Shown here piece after piece: positions 4,662 through 62,790 of a DNA stretch of 64,000 nt. Numbering within the stretch: position 1 is the stretch's first letter; each line of letters opens with the position of its first letter. Where the stretch lies: positions 26,894 to 90,893 of the forward strand of contig JBAYHI010000001.1 in the NCBI GenBank assembly GCA_041666205.1, written 5' to 3'. This DNA comes from Patescibacteria group bacterium (GTDB taxonomy: Bacteria > Patescibacteriota > Patescibacteriia > UBA9934). The translations under genes were made by a program, and so were the position numbers. The notes under the pieces were generated by a model. The model saw only the letters and a list, made by a program, of their open reading frames with translations, was not told the DNA's origin and made no database searches.

Positions 4662-5342
4662 CTAGCCAAAGTACTTCTCATTGTAAAACCGAATGAGCGA
4701 CTCGACTTCGGCAACAATTGAAGGATTTGAGCCCGTCACCTTGGTGCGAGCCTGCACTGAGGCAAAATCCTTACACCCGGCAATCACTGCTTCTTCGATA
4801 TCGCGGTCGGTTACGCGGGCTCCAGCGTCCACAATGCGCGACGCTTCTGGTATCACTTTTTCTATTTGATTGGTGGAGCGGTAATAATCGTTAATGGCGT
4901 CGCGCAGGGCTTTGTCGCATAGGACCGAGCAATGGAATTTGCGCGCCGGCAGTCCACCGAGTCGCTCCATGACGAGCTCCGGGCGAAGCGCTCGCGCTTC
5001 TTCTGGGGTCATGCCTTCTCCTTCAGTCACCATCACAGACGCCATGGAGGTGGCGGCAATGGCTGATCCGCACCCAAATGTGCGCCACGCGCACTTTTTG
5101 ATGCGATTCGTTTTTTCGTCGACAAAGAGCCACATGCGCATTTCGTCGCCACATGCGGGACTGCCGGCGCGCCCCTTGGCATTAAATTCCCCTGGCACAG
5201 GATCGCGATTCAAGAAATTTCGTGGATTAAAAAAATGATCTTTCACGGTTTCACTGTAAAACCACGAGGTTTTGCCGTCAAAACTCTTTACATCCCCGCC
5301 TTCCCCCACGATTTTTTCTGCTTCGTGTGGAATTTTATTCAT
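4662..5342 (-). CDS. nifU: NifU-like Fe-S scaffold (IscU-type N-domain plus BFD-like 2Fe-2S domain)
   Basis: Conserved Cys ligand motif SPACGDEMRMW and HC in the IscU domain; C-terminal BFD-like segment. Confidence 0.85.
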   Translation of the reverse strand: MNKIPHEAEKIVGEGGDVKSFDGKTSWFYSETVKDHFFNPRNFLNRDPVPGEFNAKGRAGSPACGDEMRMWLFVDEKTNRIKKCAWRTFGCGSAIAATSMASVMVTEGEGMTPEEARALRPELVMERLGGLPARKFHCSVLCDKALRDAINDYYRSTNQIEKVIPEASRIVDAGARVTDRDIEEAVIAGCKDFASVQARTKVTGSNPSIVAEVESLIRFYNEKYFG

Positions 5343-17720: not shown

Positions 17721-19004
17721 TTATTTTACCATTTTTGATTTGAGGAGCTCGATTGTTTTTCGATTTACATGTTGAGCTCGCACATATTCGCGGTAATCTG
17801 GCCCGTAAATGCGTTTTTTGATTTCTTCGTCGTCGTATTGCTCGGCGATTTTATCAAGTTCTGGATCAAGTTCAGCGTCTGTCACTTCAATCTTCTCCTT
17901 TTTGGAGATTTCTTTGAGAACGAGTCCTACTTGAACGCGTCGAAGCGCGGCTTTTGCAAAATCGAGTTTCAAGTCGGCCGGTGTTTTATTGATGGATTTG
18001 AGGTAGGAATCGATTTCGAGCCCGCGATCTTTGAGTGAATGTTCAAGTTCGTGCGTCATTTTGTCGATTTCTTGATTGATCAAGAGATCCGGAATTGCCT
18101 CGAACTTGGATTTTTCTGCAAGAAGATCTAAAACCTCGCGATCCTGGCGCAAGCGTTCTTCTTCTTCATTTTCGGCCTGCATATTCTCGGAAAGCTTTTC
18201 TTCAAGCTTTGCAAGACTCTCAAGACCGACTTTCTTGGCAAATTCTTCATCGATCGTTGGGGTGTCGAGTCCGTAGATTTCATTTACAACCACGGTGAAG
18301 TCAATATTTTGACCTGCCAGATGCTTTTGGTAGTGATCTTTTGGAAACGGAAGCGTGAATGTGCGCTCTTCGCCTTCTTTTGCGCCAAGGATTTTCTCAA
18401 CAATGCCGTCGATGTAGTGAGGTTCTGCTGTATAAATGCCGTGATTGCGACCTTCCCCACCTTCGAGTACAACACCCTCTTTTTTCATGGTGAGATTCAC
18501 AACCGCTTTATCGCCCTTCACAAGAACTTCACCTGCAACTTTACGGGTTTCCTTGGTTTGCATGGTTGCAAGCTCTTTTTTGGCAGATTCAATGGTTTCT
18601 TTGCTTGGTTTTGTGTCTTTCTTTTCAACAGAAAGCTTTTCGTAATCAGCAAGTTCCAAAACCTTTGGGAAGAGCGCGACTTCGGCCGTGATGACCATAT
18701 CGTTGCCTGGGGCCATTTTGACTGCGTTAAAATATGGCTGACCAACGGTTTCAAGGTCTTCTTTGAGCATGGCGTCCACAAATGCAGCGCGAATGAGCTC
18801 TTCGGCAGCAGCTTCGAGGAGTTTCATTTCCCCAACGCGCTGTTTTACAACTTCATAGCTTGCTTTTCCCGGTCGAAATCCAGGAATCGAGCTTTCTTCG
18901 CTCATATGTTCAGAAGCGTGTTGCATTCCAGCTTCAACGGTTTCGGCAGGAATCGTGAGCGTAAACGTGGCTTTATTGTCTTTGATTTCTAATGTGTATG
19001 GCAT
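17721..19004 (-). CDS. tig: Trigger factor
   Basis: 427 aa with a ribosome-binding N-domain (GFRPGKAS motif), a PPIase-like middle domain and a C-terminal domain. Confidence 0.9.
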   Translation of the reverse strand: MPYTLEIKDNKATFTLTIPAETVEAGMQHASEHMSEESSIPGFRPGKASYEVVKQRVGEMKLLEAAAEELIRAAFVDAMLKEDLETVGQPYFNAVKMAPGNDMVITAEVALFPKVLELADYEKLSVEKKDTKPSKETIESAKKELATMQTKETRKVAGEVLVKGDKAVVNLTMKKEGVVLEGGEGRNHGIYTAEPHYIDGIVEKILGAKEGEERTFTLPFPKDHYQKHLAGQNIDFTVVVNEIYGLDTPTIDEEFAKKVGLESLAKLEEKLSENMQAENEEEERLRQDREVLDLLAEKSKFEAIPDLLINQEIDKMTHELEHSLKDRGLEIDSYLKSINKTPADLKLDFAKAALRRVQVGLVLKEISKKEKIEVTDAELDPELDKIAEQYDDEEIKKRIYGPDYREYVRAQHVNRKTIELLKSKMVK

Positions 19005-19044
19005 AGATTTGTTGCAAGTCTAGGCGAAAATACGAGCCCTGTCA

Positions 19045-19546
19045 ATGATTTATCGTCTAAATGCGCAAACGCCGGCCCAGAGTTGGGTCGGCGCGGAGGA
19101 GGAACAGAAGAGACTAGATGGTCAGCTGCCTGGATGCGGAAGCACTGGTGCAGACTTCATCCTTGCAAACCGCCACGATGTACACGAAGTCCTTGCTAAA
19201 GGTTTCTCCCGCGAACACCCTGTGGGTTTCTGTCGATGCCGATTCTCCCGGAACCGACACTCGCTCGTGCACCGGATGCCCTTTCATCTTGTTCACGAGA
19301 GCTCGAGCCAGATCCTCCGCCATCTTTTTGGTCTCATCGCGTTCGCGCGTGAGCGCGTCGATCCTCCGGCGCAACCACCACACCACGAAGATGCTGAGGG
19401 CGACGTAGAAGAGGGAGAAGATGAGGGAAAGGGTTTGCATGGCAAAATCCTCCAAGCATGCAGGTTTGTCCTGCGGTGAGACGTGCGTCGACGAATCGAC
19501 GGTCATAGAGATGACGAAAAAAGATACCAAGAAAACACCGCCACGT
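19045..19546 (-). other. Unit 1 of a GC-rich tandem cassette: promoter (TTGACG-17-TATCTT at 19521-19549), structured 5' UTR, small-TM-protein CDS, terminator hairpin
   Basis: The unit is repeated at 19547-20060. The non-coding flanks are nearly identical while the coding DNA has diverged. Confidence 0.7.
19114..19440 (-). CDS. Small N-terminal single-TM protein (108 aa), cassette paralog 1
   Basis: GGAGG sits 7 nt upstream of the ATG at 19440. An N-terminal hydrophobic helix is followed by a charged helix (RRRIDALTRERDETKKMAEDLARALVNK) and a Cys/His-containing tail. The ORF-track start at 19530 lies upstream of the RBS and is less likely. Confidence 0.6.
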   Translation of the reverse strand: MQTLSLIFSLFYVALSIFVVWWLRRRIDALTRERDETKKMAEDLARALVNKMKGHPVHERVSVPGESASTETHRVFAGETFSKDFVYIVAVCKDEVCTSASASRQLTI

Positions 19547-20060
19547 CAACGTTTCATTCATCTAAATGCGCAAACGCCGGCCCAGCGAGATGGGCCGGCG
19601 CGGAGAGTGATGAGGAGTGCCTAGTTGGCCGGTCCCAAGAATTTTGCCTTGGTGCAATGACCGTCTGAGTCGTGGGCTTCGGCCACGATGTCAAGGTAAC
19701 CACCTTCATGCATCACATCACGTCCAGCGGGGTGGATAGTGAAGCGATCTTCCCCATCAATGCGTCTGGGTTGAGCACCGCAGACATCTATTCCGTTGAT
19801 CTGGTTGATGAGCGCCTGGGCCAAGACGTCAATAATCTGGTTGGCGAACTTGAGCTCGTCTTCGACCTGCTCCACCCTTTTACTGAAGGAGTAGATGATG
19901 ATGAGGCAGAGGATGCCGATGACAAGGGCGAATCCGGCGAGAAGGGTGTTCATGGTAAGTCCTCCAATGCAGTGTGGGCGTCGATGATTCGACGGTCATT
20001 GAGATGACGAAAAAAGATACCAAGAAATCATTGCCGCGTCAATCGCGCAATCAAAAAACC
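19547..20060 (-). other. Unit 2 of the GC-rich tandem cassette (promoter TTGACG-17-TATCTT at 20014-20042)
   Basis: Same architecture as unit 1. A ccggccca...tgggccgg terminator hairpin sits at about 19575-19605. Confidence 0.7.
19621..19953 (-). CDS. Small N-terminal single-TM protein (110 aa), cassette paralog 2
   Basis: GGAGGA upstream of the ATG at 19953. An N-terminal TM helix precedes LAQALINQINGI, which aligns with LARALVNKMKG of paralog 1. Identity to paralog 1 is only about 25-30% by eye. Confidence 0.6.
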   Translation of the reverse strand: MNTLLAGFALVIGILCLIIIYSFSKRVEQVEDELKFANQIIDVLAQALINQINGIDVCGAQPRRIDGEDRFTIHPAGRDVMHEGGYLDIVAEAHDSDGHCTKAKFLGPAN

Positions 20061-20092
20061 ACCAGCAATGTGCCGGTGGTTTTTATTTCGCG
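20058..20092. terminator. Intrinsic terminator of hppA (bidirectional hairpin)
   Basis: aaaaaaccaccagcaatgtgccggtggttttta. Confidence 0.65.
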
Positions 20093-20093
20093 A

Positions 20094-22094
20094 TTAAAGC
20101 ACTGCAACGATGAGCGGGACGATGATCAAAGCGACGATATTCACGATTTTGATCATTGGGTTAATGGCTGGACCAGCTGTATCTTTGTAAGGATCGCCAA
20201 CGGTGTCGCCTGTTACTGCTGCTTGGTGAGCAGGCGAATGCTTACCACCGTAATTTCCTTTTTCAATGTATTTCTTGGCGTTATCCCATGCTCCACCGCC
20301 TGTGGTCATGGAGATTGCAAGGAAAAGACCGGTAACAATCGTTCCAATCAAGAGTCCACCAAGTGCGGCAGGCCCAAGTAAGAATCCAACGGCAATTGGC
20401 ACAACCACTGGCAAGAGCGCTGGCACAAACATCTCTTGGATTGCGGCTTTTGTCACAATGTCCACTGCTTTGCTGTAGTCTGGCTTTTCTTTTCCTTCCA
20501 TGATGCCTTTGATTTCGCGGAACTGACGTCGAACTTCTTCAACGACTTTTCCAGCTGCTTTGCCAACGGCTTCCATTGCGTATGAGGCAAAAAGGTAAGG
20601 AAGCAGTCCACCAATGAAGAGCCCGGCAATAATGTATGGGTCAGCAAGGTCGAATGCGACTTTTGCTCCGTGAAGCGCAAGTTCTTCGGTATAACTTGCA
20701 AACAAGACTGTAGCGGCGAGCCCAGCGGAGGCAATTGCATATCCTTTTGTGACGGCTTTGGTTGTATTTCCAACTGCGTCGAGTGGATCGGTCACTTCGC
20801 GTACTTCTTTTGAAAGTTCAGCCATTTCTGCAATTCCACCAGCGTTATCGGTAATTGGACCGTATGCGTCGAGCGTCACAATCATGCCTGTGAGCGAGAG
20901 CATTGCCATTACGGCCATTGCTGCGCCATAAATATCGGCAAGCATGTAGGAAGCAATAAGACCAGCAACAATCACAAGGACCGGAAGCACGGTTGCGCGC
21001 ATGGAAAGCGCGAGTCCTGAGATGACGTTTGTGCCATGGCCGGTTTGTGAGGCTTCAGCAACGCGCTGAACTGGCTTGTATTCGGTTGAGGTGTAGTATT
21101 CGGTAATCACAACCATCAGTGCAGTAACGGCAAGCCCAACAATCAAGGACCAGTAAATATTCATAGCGTTTACGCCTGCAATATCTCCCAAAATCCATTG
21201 TGTCATTGGATAAAATGCGATAGCGGAAATCACGCCAGCAACAATGACTCCTTTATAGAGCGCGCGCATAATCGCGCCAGTTTTTCCAACTTTCACAACC
21301 AAGCTTCCAACAATCGAGGCAATAATTCCAACCGCGCCGATTGCAAATGGGAACGTAATAATGGCTTCAATGTTTCCAAAGACCTGCGCACCAATAATCA
21401 TGGAGGCAATCATGGAAACTGCATATGTCTCAAAGAGGTCCGCTGCCATTCCAGCGCAATCCCCTACGTTATCGCCAACGTTGTCGGCAATGACGGCTGG
21501 GTTGCGTGGATCGTCTTCTGGAATTCCTGCTTCTACTTTTCCGACGAGGTCAGCACCAACGTCTGCGGCTTTTGTGAAGATTCCACCGCCGAGTCGTGCA
21601 AATACGGAAATGAGTGATCCTCCAAAACCAAGGCCAACAAGTGCGCCAACGTCTTTTGTGATGAGATAAAAGCCAACCACACCAATGAGCCCAAGCGTCA
21701 CGACGAATAATCCTGTAACGGATCCGCCACGCACGGCCAAATTAAGCGCAGGAGACAATCCTTTTTTGGCAGCTTCGGCTGTGCGCACATTTGCGCGAAC
21801 CGAAATCATCATGCCAATGAATCCGGTAAGCCCTGAGAGGATTGCTCCCACCAGGAACCCACAGGCCATGGTCCAGTTTAGGAAAAAGCCAAGAAGAAGG
21901 AAGATAACAGCGCCAACCATGCCAATGGCACGGTACTGACGCGAGAGGTAGGCGTTTGCTCCTTCTTGAATGGCCAGAGCAATACCTTTCATTTTTCCTT
22001 CCCCAGCGGGCTGGCGAAGAATCCAACGAATTAGAAGACCTGTATAGACAATCGCTGCGGCTGCAACGATGAGTGCAATGATGGAAATACTCAT
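20094..22094 (-). CDS. hppA: Membrane-bound proton-translocating pyrophosphatase (V-type H+-PPase)
   Basis: 666 aa with about 15 TM helices and H+-PPase motifs ([38 protein letters not shown]). Confidence 0.9.
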
Positions 22095-59799: not shown

Positions 59800-60608
59800 T
59801 CACCAGCCTGGAATTTCACCGGCGGTGATTTTTTTGTCCGGCTGGACTTTTTCCCCTCGTAGAACGCGATCGGCCACAACCACAGCGCTCAAGACTTCCG
59901 TGACGTACCTTGTGCCCTGACTCTCATCCTTTCGGATTCGAGCCGGGCCCTTGTTGTACGCCTTGAGCCCAAGCTCACGACTCTGGAAACTCGTTTCGTA
60001 GACTCGAAGGGTTTCGAGTCCGATCACGATGTTTTCCAGATCGCTTGCTGTGGCATCGACCTCATCTTGCCCAAGTTTTCTCGCCGCGACCGCCTTTGCC
60101 TGGTCTGGCGCAAGGCTGATTTGCATGAGGCCTTGGCTTAGTTGCTTACAGCCATGGCTCTCATGTGTGATGATTCCGAGCGCAAATGCGAGTGGGTAGC
60201 CCGAGATTTTCGCAGCCTTTTCAATGACCGCGCGCTTCCTGAGGCACTTCCTCACGGATGCTTCCTCTCCGAGTCGATCCCGATTGTAGATTCGGGTGAC
60301 GCTTGGGAGGATGCTCGTATCGAAGGTTGAAACGCCCCTATGGGGCACAACCTTCTTGGTCGTCGGGTTTTGGGGCTGAGGTTTTTTTGCGCTCTTCGGC
60401 TTCTCGGCCGGCTTCTGCTTCACGACGGAAATCTGTTCCGCCGTAGCGTGTCGCCGGTCGACTCGAACGGTGACGGTTTCCTCTACAGCGGGCGCTGCGA
60501 GGACGATTTCTTCCTCCGCGGGTGCGGAGAAGGCTCCATAGAAGGCGAGGGCTCTGGCCATGAAATAGACCAGGCCGATCATGAGGCAGAAAATGAAGTT
60601 TTTCACTT
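59800..60608 (-). CDS. Secreted lytic transglycosylase (SLT domain), GC-rich
   Basis: SLT family-1 motifs (ITHESHG ... GLMQISL). The proposed start is GTG at about 60608, preceded by GGAGA, giving signal peptide VKNFIFCLMIGLVYFMARALA. The ORF-track ATG at 60693 is an alternative. The GC rise coincides with the ORF. Confidence 0.65.
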
Positions 60609-62121: not shown

Positions 62122-62790
62122 ATGGCATCCATCGCTACCCTGGCCTCCTTCCTCGGCACTATCCAGAAGTTTCTGGGCATTTCGGCAAAGGACGGCCTGC
62201 CCGACGAATTCTACCAGAGGGTGATTGACGACCCTGTATTTCGCGGGCAGTTTGTCGCATGGGCGCAGGTTGAGCTTAACTCTACGGTTATCGCCGAACA
62301 TGACTCAGCACCGGCAGCGCGGAGCCTGCAGTCGATGATCGACCGGATGCGACGGAATCCGGTAGCGGATCCTGAAACCAGGCTAACGATCCCTCAGGTT
62401 GTGTGGGTGCTCGATCGCATCGTCAATGACGTTAAGGACCACGGTGTCCAATCGCTGTCGTTGAAAAGCGAGCATTGGCGGCGCTGGGTGATCAACATGA
62501 TCCCCGAGCTCACCTTTGATCGTGATGTCGAAGACGCCTTGAATGCGTTCGTCCGAGAATTCCACCTGGAGCTCCTTGATAGTCGGCTTATCGGGCAGAA
62601 CTCAAGGGATCTTGCGAACATGGGAGTGATTCAGGTGGAGGTCGTGAACGGAATCACGATGTACAATCCCAACCTTCCGTCTGGCTCCCAGGCAACCGTG
62701 GCGAGCATCCGACGCTGGGGCGTGCGTGGGACTACTCCTGTCCAGGCCGTTTACCGCAGCGCGCTCGTCGAGAGTGGCAATTGGGCGTAA
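62122..62790 (+). CDS. Hypothetical cytoplasmic protein, GC-rich
   Basis: 222-aa ORF with GAGG 7 nt upstream of the ATG; no TM segment or recognised motif. The GC rise begins about 50 nt upstream and persists to about 62900. Confidence 0.55.
   Translation: MASIATLASFLGTIQKFLGISAKDGLPDEFYQRVIDDPVFRGQFVAWAQVELNSTVIAEHDSAPAARSLQSMIDRMRRNPVADPETRLTIPQVVWVLDRIVNDVKDHGVQSLSLKSEHWRRWVINMIPELTFDRDVEDALNAFVREFHLELLDSRLIGQNSRDLANMGVIQVEVVNGITMYNPNLPSGSQATVASIRRWGVRGTTPVQAVYRSALVESGNWA

Follow-up and report, generated by a model that had tools for sequence, protein, structure and literature searches.

In a 64,000-nucleotide (nt) stretch of DNA from a Patescibacteria metagenome-assembled genome (MAG), called the window below, two short adjacent hairpins lie directly past the promoter of each of the two tandem units of a gene cassette. 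The cassette fills the intergenic region at 19005-20093, between the genes for an H+-pyrophosphatase (20094-22094) and for trigger factor (tig, 17721-19004), and its two units, about 500 bp each, are both on the minus strand. We tentatively propose, with a little less than even confidence, that the hairpins are a stabiliser or insulator of the mRNA 5' end within a portable unit of promoter, hairpins, open reading frame (ORF) and terminator, rather than a switch. Judged by trigger factor the closest relatives of the source genome are Candidatus Uhrbacteria MAGs, and cassettes with the same leader layout are found at the same place in two related genomes (loci L015 and L008).

The comparison of these leaders favours the view that the palindromes act as sense-strand RNA structure at the predicted 5' end of the transcript. 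RNA is preferred to a DNA operator because the spacing of the arms varies, the second hairpins are unrelated in sequence, the changes between the window and L015 are compensated, and a stem with G.U pairs in one of the L008 units (L008A) is strand-specific. Further, a 5'-end element is preferred to a translational switch because the hairpins are placed at the predicted +1, do not include the Shine-Dalgarno (SD) sequence and lie at a variable distance from it.

The double hairpin in the window

The order of elements is the same in both units: a promoter, two palindromes, a GGAGG ribosome binding site (RBS), an orphan ORF and a GC-rich 3' hairpin followed by TTTGCGCATTT. Each promoter reads TTGACG-17-TATCTT and has the TG of an extended -10. 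In a consensus scan four promoter-like sites were found, compared with 1.0 +/- 1.0 expected. The G+C content is 54-58% across the units and 45-48% in the flanking genes. The features are listed here, with lengths of the products in amino acids (aa).

20037..20042, minus strand: unit 2 -35 hexamer TTGACG (consensus scan); the 17-nt spacer and the hexamer are the same in unit 1, L015 and L008
20014..20022, minus strand: unit 2 extended -10, TGgTATCTT (consensus scan)
19995..20008, minus strand: unit 2 hairpin 1, GUCAU-CUCA-AUGAC, 5 nt past the -10, at the predicted 5' end; minimum pair probability 0.57
19979..19994, minus strand: unit 2 hairpin 2, CGUCGA-AUCA-UCGACG, from folding; minimum pair probability 0.83
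19961..19965, minus strand: unit 2 SD, GGAGG, with a gap of 7 nt to the ATG and of 13 nt to hairpin 2
19621..19953, minus strand: unit 2 ORF, 110 aa, an orphan with an N-terminal hydrophobic helix
19575..19600, minus strand: unit 2 GC-rich 3' hairpin, CGCCGGCCCA-6-TGGGCCGGCG and then TTTGCGCATTT; terminator-like, with a weak T tract
19544..19549, minus strand: unit 1 -35 hexamer TTGACG (consensus scan)
19521..19529, minus strand: unit 1 extended -10, TGgTATCTT (consensus scan)
19502..19515, minus strand: unit 1 hairpin 1, GUCAU-CUCU-AUGAC, from folding; minimum pair probability 0.64
19486..19501, minus strand: unit 1 hairpin 2, CGUCGA-UUCG-UCGACG, from folding; minimum pair probability 0.78
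19460..19474, minus strand: third hairpin specific to unit 1, GCAGG-ACAAA-CCUGC, in a stretch of about 20 nt missing from unit 2 (centroid fold)
19449..19453, minus strand: unit 1 SD, GGAGG, with a gap of 8 nt to the ATG and of 32 nt to hairpin 2
19114..19440, minus strand: unit 1 ORF, 108 aa, an orphan paralogue of unit 2
19070..19093, minus strand: unit 1 GC-rich 3' hairpin with one A.C mismatch, then TTTGCGCATTT; core 96% identical to unit 2
19017..19045, minus strand: trigger-factor promoter TTGACA-17-TAGACT, the ancestral right border of the insertion site; relatives without an insertion have the same promoter

In the window the 30-nt double-hairpin motif is restricted to the cassette: it occurs twice in 64 kb, both times in a unit leader, where 0 occurrences are expected. 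The hairpins sit within a 65-nt block that is 89% identical between the units. Its seven differences are distributed unevenly, with four in the promoter spacer, three in the two loops and none in the 22 stem bases, so that every difference within the leader falls in a loop. The avoidance of the stems has a p-value of 0.046 over the whole block and of 0.014 within the leader or when the promoter hexamers are excluded. This is a statistically modest and post hoc result, and we regard it as suggestive.

Stems kept with changes in the loops had been reported in a first-pass annotation of the same DNA, and the stems and loops are exactly as described there in both units. The changes had also been called compensatory, a term that does not apply within the window: no stem base differs between the units, so there is no covariation.

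When each leader is folded from the predicted transcript start, the minimum-energy structure consists of hairpin 1 and hairpin 2 in both units (-10.0 kcal/mol in unit 1 and -10.4 kcal/mol in unit 2), and both shared stems are thus recovered. Compared with 2000 dinucleotide shuffles the p-value is 0.057 for unit 1 and 0.004 for unit 2. In the full 5' untranslated region hairpin 1 has minimum pair probabilities of 0.57-0.64 and hairpin 2 of 0.78-0.83. In a longer, arbitrary fragment of unit 2, folding replaces hairpin 1 by other pairing.

The hairpins exclude the SD, and the distance from hairpin 2 to the SD varies between 9 and 32 nt across the cassettes. The position of the RBS, earlier described as conserved, is so only with respect to the start codon (8 and 7 nt from GGAGG to ATG in units 1 and 2), while its distance to the hairpins is 32 nt in one unit and 13 nt in the other.

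Related cassettes and their leaders

Related loci were gathered through trigger factor. The order of the pyrophosphatase and trigger-factor genes is conserved in the relatives, and in six of them the region between the two is 95-127 bp long, with the terminator of the pyrophosphatase gene followed directly by the tig promoter TTGACA-17-TAnACT. Four genomes carry insertions of 0.7-1.6 kb at this spot, with different orphan cargo and in both orientations. As the insertions at the same spot differ, the spot is a recurrent insertion hot spot.

Window, 19005-20093: two units, minus strand
L015, 4294-4995: one unit on the same strand, with a 144-aa ORF homologous to units 1 and 2
L008, 3389-5001: two tandem 105-aa paralogues and a 122-aa ORF on the opposite strand; unrelated protein family
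L011, 4080-5001: a 178-aa ORF on the opposite strand

A contig from JGI (L001) is from the same strain as the window, with one mismatch in 2847 nt, and adds no variation.

A pattern of TTGAC[AG], 16-18 nt, TAnnnT, 4-6 nt and GTC was searched over about 225 kb and found seven sites, five of which are cassette units of the hot spot. These five units, from three genomes (window units 1 and 2, L015 at 4382, L008 at 4309 and 4772), have a common layout: TTGAC[AG], 17-18 nt, TAnnTT, 5 nt, GTC and two adjacent hairpins. In all five the G of the GTC lies 5 nt past the -10 hexamer, which predicts a transcription start at or beside the first paired base. Folded from the GTC, the leaders (with p-values against shuffles) are:

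Window units 1 and 2: GUCAU-N4-AUGAC, then CGUCGA-N4-UCGACG
L015: GUC-ACGC-GAC, then CAUCCG-N11-CGGAUG (p = 0.009)
L008B: GUCU-ACAU-AGAC, G, then GGAGCUA-UAG-UAGCUCU (p = 0.040)
L008A: GUCU-ACAU-AGAC, then CGGGAUG-AACGA-CGUCCUG (p = 0.026)

The structure is kept in the relatives despite changes in sequence. The homologous cassette in L015 has its two hairpins at the same promoter offset as the window, with different stems. Of the six pairs of hairpin 2, three have changed on both sides between the window and L015 (G-C to A-U, G-C to C-G and A-U to G-C), three are unchanged and none is broken; its loop is 4 nt long in the window and 11 nt in L015. The fourth pair of hairpin 1, A-U in the window, is U-A in L008. 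Altogether, four different sequences make up the stem of hairpin 2, and the hairpins precede genes of two unrelated protein families. These changes were counted by hand or by script, and MAFFT gave no structural alignment of the five leaders.

One of the stems is strand-specific. Hairpin 2 of L008A uses two G.U pairs and is predicted on the sense strand only, with z = -2.66 (4 of 200 shuffles as good) compared with z = -0.16 on the antisense strand (78 of 200).

A loosely defined double hairpin is in itself common: about 27 are expected by chance per 450 kb of strand, or roughly one per 17 kb. However, in every cassette it lies exactly 5 nt past the -10, and its placement is therefore not explained by chance. 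The exact motif of the window (GTCAT-N4-ATGAC-N-GTCGA-N4-TCGAC), searched together with a 20-mer from the promoter and leader, has no match in viral contigs and none in genome contigs. Two matches to the motif in metagenomes were rejected as chance, as they lie inside unrelated high-GC coding sequence and have no promoter context.

About 290 kb of Uhrbacteria DNA holds 54 matches to the promoter consensus, and we also compared the predicted 5' ends behind them. The six of highest stability all belong to GC-rich accessory genes (both units of the window and both of L008, L011 at 8016 and a 632-aa ORF at 187 in the window), and in these the hairpin begins at base 0-1. The leaders of housekeeping genes, including tig, are essentially unstructured. 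A T-rich promoter spacer, considered as a sign of homology between the window and L008 promoters, was rejected, since it is also present in the tig promoters.

Possible functions of the hairpins

In the reading that we favour, each unit would be self-contained. An extended -10 promoter of the sigma-70 type would be followed after 5 nt by the G that opens hairpin 1 (GUC...GAC), and then by 0-1 nt, hairpin 2, an unstructured spacer, the SD, an orphan ORF of about 110 aa and the GC-rich 3' hairpin. A 5' end that is base-paired and leaves no single-stranded overhang would protect the transcript from 5'-end-dependent decay, by blocking a route that consists of a pyrophosphohydrolase plus entry of the RNase J or RNase E type, and the hairpins would also make expression independent of the ORF that is carried. 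We infer the transcription start, the formation of the hairpins in vivo and the stabilising effect alike. Stem-loops at the 5' terminus stabilise the ompA, papA and aprE mRNAs (review PMC3997798, its references 93-95, 109, 112-114); such hairpins block RppH and the 5'-end-dependent entry of RNase E or RNase J, and RppH needs two or more 5' nucleotides that are unpaired (PMC3997798).

Several observations weigh against a 5'-end stabiliser. The start site is predicted, and if it lay a few bases off, the 5' end would carry a single-stranded tail. The stem of hairpin 1 is weak, being 5 bp long in the window and just 3 bp in L015 (pair probability 0.22). Taken alone, unit 1 folds no better than its shuffles at the 5% level, and the perfect palindromes of the window do not by themselves separate an RNA function from a DNA function. 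The comparison covers only three independent lineages, with one alignable homologous pair (the window and L015). Finally, the conservation of the cassette is a mosaic. The proteins of units 1 and 2 are paralogous and about 25% identical (26% over 54 aa), and their ORFs align at 59% nucleotide identity with many gaps, while identity is 89% in the promoter-hairpin block and 96% in the 3' core. That the flanks are far better kept than the ORFs would imply either recent gene conversion of the flanks or exchange of ORFs between conserved flanks, and recent gene conversion would keep the stems identical without selection.

The last point can be taken further, to hairpins that have no function of their own, with stems identical through recent duplication or gene conversion of the promoter-leader block and loop changes that arose by chance. 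The mosaic agrees with this, as do the fold of unit 1 and the p-value of 0.046 reached with only seven differences; however, the two-hairpin layout recurs with different stems at the same promoter offset in L015 and in the unrelated L008, and an exact 5-nt offset in five units is not expected of a motif found about once per 17 kb, so that we hold this to be unlikely. If the palindromes instead work as double-stranded DNA, a dimeric repressor bound at +1 to +30 could block transcription of both units. Two perfect palindromes directly past the -10, with conserved arms, variable centres and a shared GTC-N8-GAC symmetry, are indeed the classical pattern of an operator. An operator is nevertheless improbable: GTC and GAC are 8 bp apart in the window, 4 bp in L015 and 6 bp in L008, the arms of hairpin 2 are unrelated in sequence with a spacer of 3-11 bp, L008A is an imperfect palindrome as DNA (G.T) and strand-specific as RNA, the 64 kb have no copy of the motif outside the cassette, and no DNA-binding protein was found in the cassettes or beside them, the Pfam searches of the cassette ORFs and of the immediate neighbours covered giving no domain. 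Single-stranded DNA signals for moving or copying the cassettes, as in integron attC sites or the ends of IS200/IS605, would fit the better conservation of the promoter-leader and 3' blocks, the different cargo found in both orientations at one intergenic spot in four genomes, and the TTGAC that bounds every unit. Such signals are decidedly improbable, as a promoter accounts fully for TTGAC, a 17-nt spacer of variable sequence and TAnnTT, the hairpins at the 5' and 3' ends do not resemble each other, one stem is RNA-specific (the G.U stem of L008A), and no recombinase or transposase was seen in the cassettes, an integrase not having been systematically searched for in the window. A wider version of this idea, which we consider quite unlikely, is that the promoter, the 5' double hairpin and the GC-rich 3' hairpin form the chassis of an undescribed, exchangeable Uhrbacteria gene cassette that brings orphan ORFs unrelated to each other into intergenic hot spots such as that between pyrophosphatase and trigger factor, tandem arrays and both orientations being allowed, the hairpins also serving as single-stranded DNA or as RNA to signal copying, swapping and homogenising of the cassettes.

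Among RNA functions other than stabilisation, a cis-acting signal to a protein or to RNA polymerase could act in antitermination through the inter-unit hairpins, as put does in phage HK022, or as the operator of a translational repressor. The two stem-loops with a linker of 0-1 nt directly past the promoter, and the terminator-like hairpins separating the tandem units, suit this. We see it as rather improbable, given an element of about 30 nt where put has about 70 nt, stems that are kept while loops vary (the opposite of most protein-RNA operators), and the presence of the element in the single-unit L015 cassette. In Rfam 15 the window has no match at the gathering score, and at E <= 10 there are chance-level matches elsewhere in 18950-20150 and none on the hairpins. 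The same lack of an Rfam match counts against a riboregulator, a thermosensor or an antisense-RNA target in a module like a type I toxin-antitoxin system, which the first-pass annotation had proposed. The products do have a hydrophobic N-terminal helix, and the SD is predicted to be mostly paired with the pyrimidine-rich codons of that hydrophobic N-terminus in units 1 and 2 and in L015 (unpaired probability 0.04-0.13; the pairing regions are 19438-19470 and 19951-19970 in the window and 4420-4470 in L015). But synonymous recodings do not differ in this masking by early codons (fractions 0.15, 0.10 and 0.49), and in L008 the SD is not paired in this way; the pairing is probably a side effect of encoding a membrane helix. 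The conserved hairpins touch neither the SD nor the AUG, and since the SD and the start codon lie outside them, 9-32 nt downstream, a thermosensor is not what they form. An antisense target fares no better: on the plus strand there is no promoter-like site in 18800-20300, and of three terminator-like sites (1.4 +/- 1.1 expected) none flanks the leader. Products of 108-144 aa are likewise not the size of type I toxins. Such a module is thus very improbable. The annotation was sound in its observation and mostly wrong in its mechanistic label: the stems are probably constrained as an RNA element, the two hairpins recurring with other stem sequences at the same promoter offset in L015 and L008, while the specific classes named are unsupported. 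A last alternative, which we find scarcely credible, is that the conserved block is coding, with a start at TTG 19530 or at ATG 19506 inside hairpin 1 and an extension or upstream peptide MVSFFVISMTV(D/E)SST. All three leader differences are at third codon positions (TCT/TCA, GAT/GAA, TCG/TCA) and a 130-aa gene call for unit 1 by JGI is consistent with the ATG start; yet three changes share a codon phase by chance one time in nine, the frame joins the ORF in unit 1 only and is out of frame in unit 2, the TTG is inside the promoter, neither upstream start has an SD, ATG 19440 has GGAGG 8 nt upstream and is the start of the 108-aa call by NCBI, and L015 and L008 have no ATG in hairpin 1.

Known systems and the cassette genes

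Returning to a protected 5' end, the closest known parallels are the 5'-terminal stabilisers of ompA and papA in E. coli and of aprE and ermC in B. subtilis. As in these, a short hairpin lies at or within a base or two of the 5' end (here predicted), is separate from the RBS and is portable across unrelated ORFs; in the cassettes it is structure rather than sequence that is kept, independently of the ORF. The cassettes differ in having two adjacent, very short hairpins (3-5 and 6-7 bp) in place of one longer hairpin, and in their host, an uncultured Patescibacteria lineage.

In the organisation of the units there is a resemblance to phage morons, reportedly autonomous promoter-ORF-terminator insertions with deviant G+C (Hendrix/Juhala 2000). 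The cassette units have their own consensus promoter, a 3' hairpin (a putative terminator with a weak T tract) and a deviant G+C, and lie between conserved genes. However, these neighbours are housekeeping genes (H+-pyrophosphatase and trigger factor, with synteny conserved in relatives) and not a prophage, and the units are in tandem with homogenised flanks. No phage similarity of the cassettes was found in viral contigs, in a phage collection or in PHROG.

Type I toxin-antitoxin systems (ldr/rdl, ibs/sib, hok/sok) also have repeated units in tandem, a hydrophobic N-terminus and a structured leader at the 5' end. Type I toxins are small and hydrophobic, typically under 60 aa. The cassettes differ from them: no antisense promoter or terminator was detected, the hairpins do not sequester the SD, and the products, of 108 and 110 aa in the window and 144 aa in L015, have a predicted C-terminal domain with a beta region. 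The put sites of phage HK022 consist of two stem-loops, one base apart, just past a promoter, and span about 70 nt. The cassette element shares with them two stem-loops 0-1 unpaired base apart, downstream of a promoter and upstream of terminators, but is less than half the size and has no similarity to them in sequence or in Rfam. Integron attC sites, 57-141 nt long with R''-L''/L'-R' arms, are found at the 3' end of promoterless cassettes next to intI/attI; the cassettes described here have their own promoters, and their 3' hairpin is 24-26 nt long.

To our knowledge almost nothing is known about post-transcriptional control in Patescibacteria, organisms that are hard to grow. Protective 5' hairpins and autonomous promoter-ORF-terminator insertions are both known; a double-hairpin example in orphan cassettes of Patescibacteria is, as far as sequence can tell, new. 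A short, portable 5' element that is common to lineage-specific orphan genes and absent from housekeeping leaders would give a handle on the expression of genes new to these bacteria; it also marks out the stretch between pyrophosphatase and trigger factor as a place of repeated insertion. Should it stabilise mRNA, it would be a compact part of about 30 nt that lends itself to reuse; otherwise, flanks conserved better than the ORFs point to a so far unrecognised process of cassette exchange.

The cassette proteins themselves are orphans. The proteins of units 1 and 2 matched only themselves among 5.8 billion proteins, and a profile search with three members recovered only the L015 protein as a further relative. 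A HMMER search against 1.8 billion representatives added one protein, P0004, which was rejected as spurious, being an ORF of arginine-rich repeats. No relatives were found in viral contigs or in the phage collection, and no informative family in Pfam, PHROG or PADLOC, the only matches being two weak ones to PHROGs of unknown function, with one marginal match for unit 1. AlphaFold2 gave a mean predicted local distance difference test score (pLDDT) of 61, with a long N-terminal helix, the only confident part, and a weak C-terminal sheet. For unit 1 (19504-19530 in the window, 1884-2276 in L001) two gene calls are on record, one of 108 aa by NCBI and one of 130 aa by JGI, the latter consistent with the ATG inside hairpin 1.

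A strict terminator scan called the 3' hairpin of neither unit (19070-19093 and 19575-19600), because the T tract (TTTGCGCATTT) is interrupted. One pair in this hairpin changes in steps, from G-C in unit 2 through the A.C mismatch in unit 1 to A-T in L015 (about 4895-4915).

The two tandem paralogues in L008 (3880-4830, minus strand) are 40% identical to each other. Their promoter and hairpin 1 are near-identical between the units and hairpin 2 has diverged, and the GC-rich 3' hairpin GCCCGCC...GGCGGGC is common to both. In mosaic architecture they match the window cassette, but the protein family is an unrelated one.

Structured 5' ends are also seen at accessory genes away from the hot spot. 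At 187-2085 on the plus strand of the window, within a region spanning 55-2150, lies a GC-rich (60-64%) orphan ORF of 632 aa with no Pfam match. It is preceded by TTGCGCA-TTGACA-17-TAAATT and a 7-bp hairpin (UUCUGCC-N13-GGCAGAA) that starts at the second base past the predicted transcription start. In L011 (7480-8020, minus strand), at a locus apart from the hot spot, TTGACA-17-TATATT, 5 nt and GTC precede a GC-rich ORF of about 124 aa; among the 54 promoter matches its 5' structure is the most stable (-13.7 kcal/mol), and its leader is about 160 nt long. Two further GC-rich islands in the window (56-57%), at 59800-60582 on the minus strand and 62122-62790 on the plus strand, are without the 5' double hairpin. 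Their products are a 260-aa protein with an SLT lytic transglycosylase domain and a 222-aa orphan.

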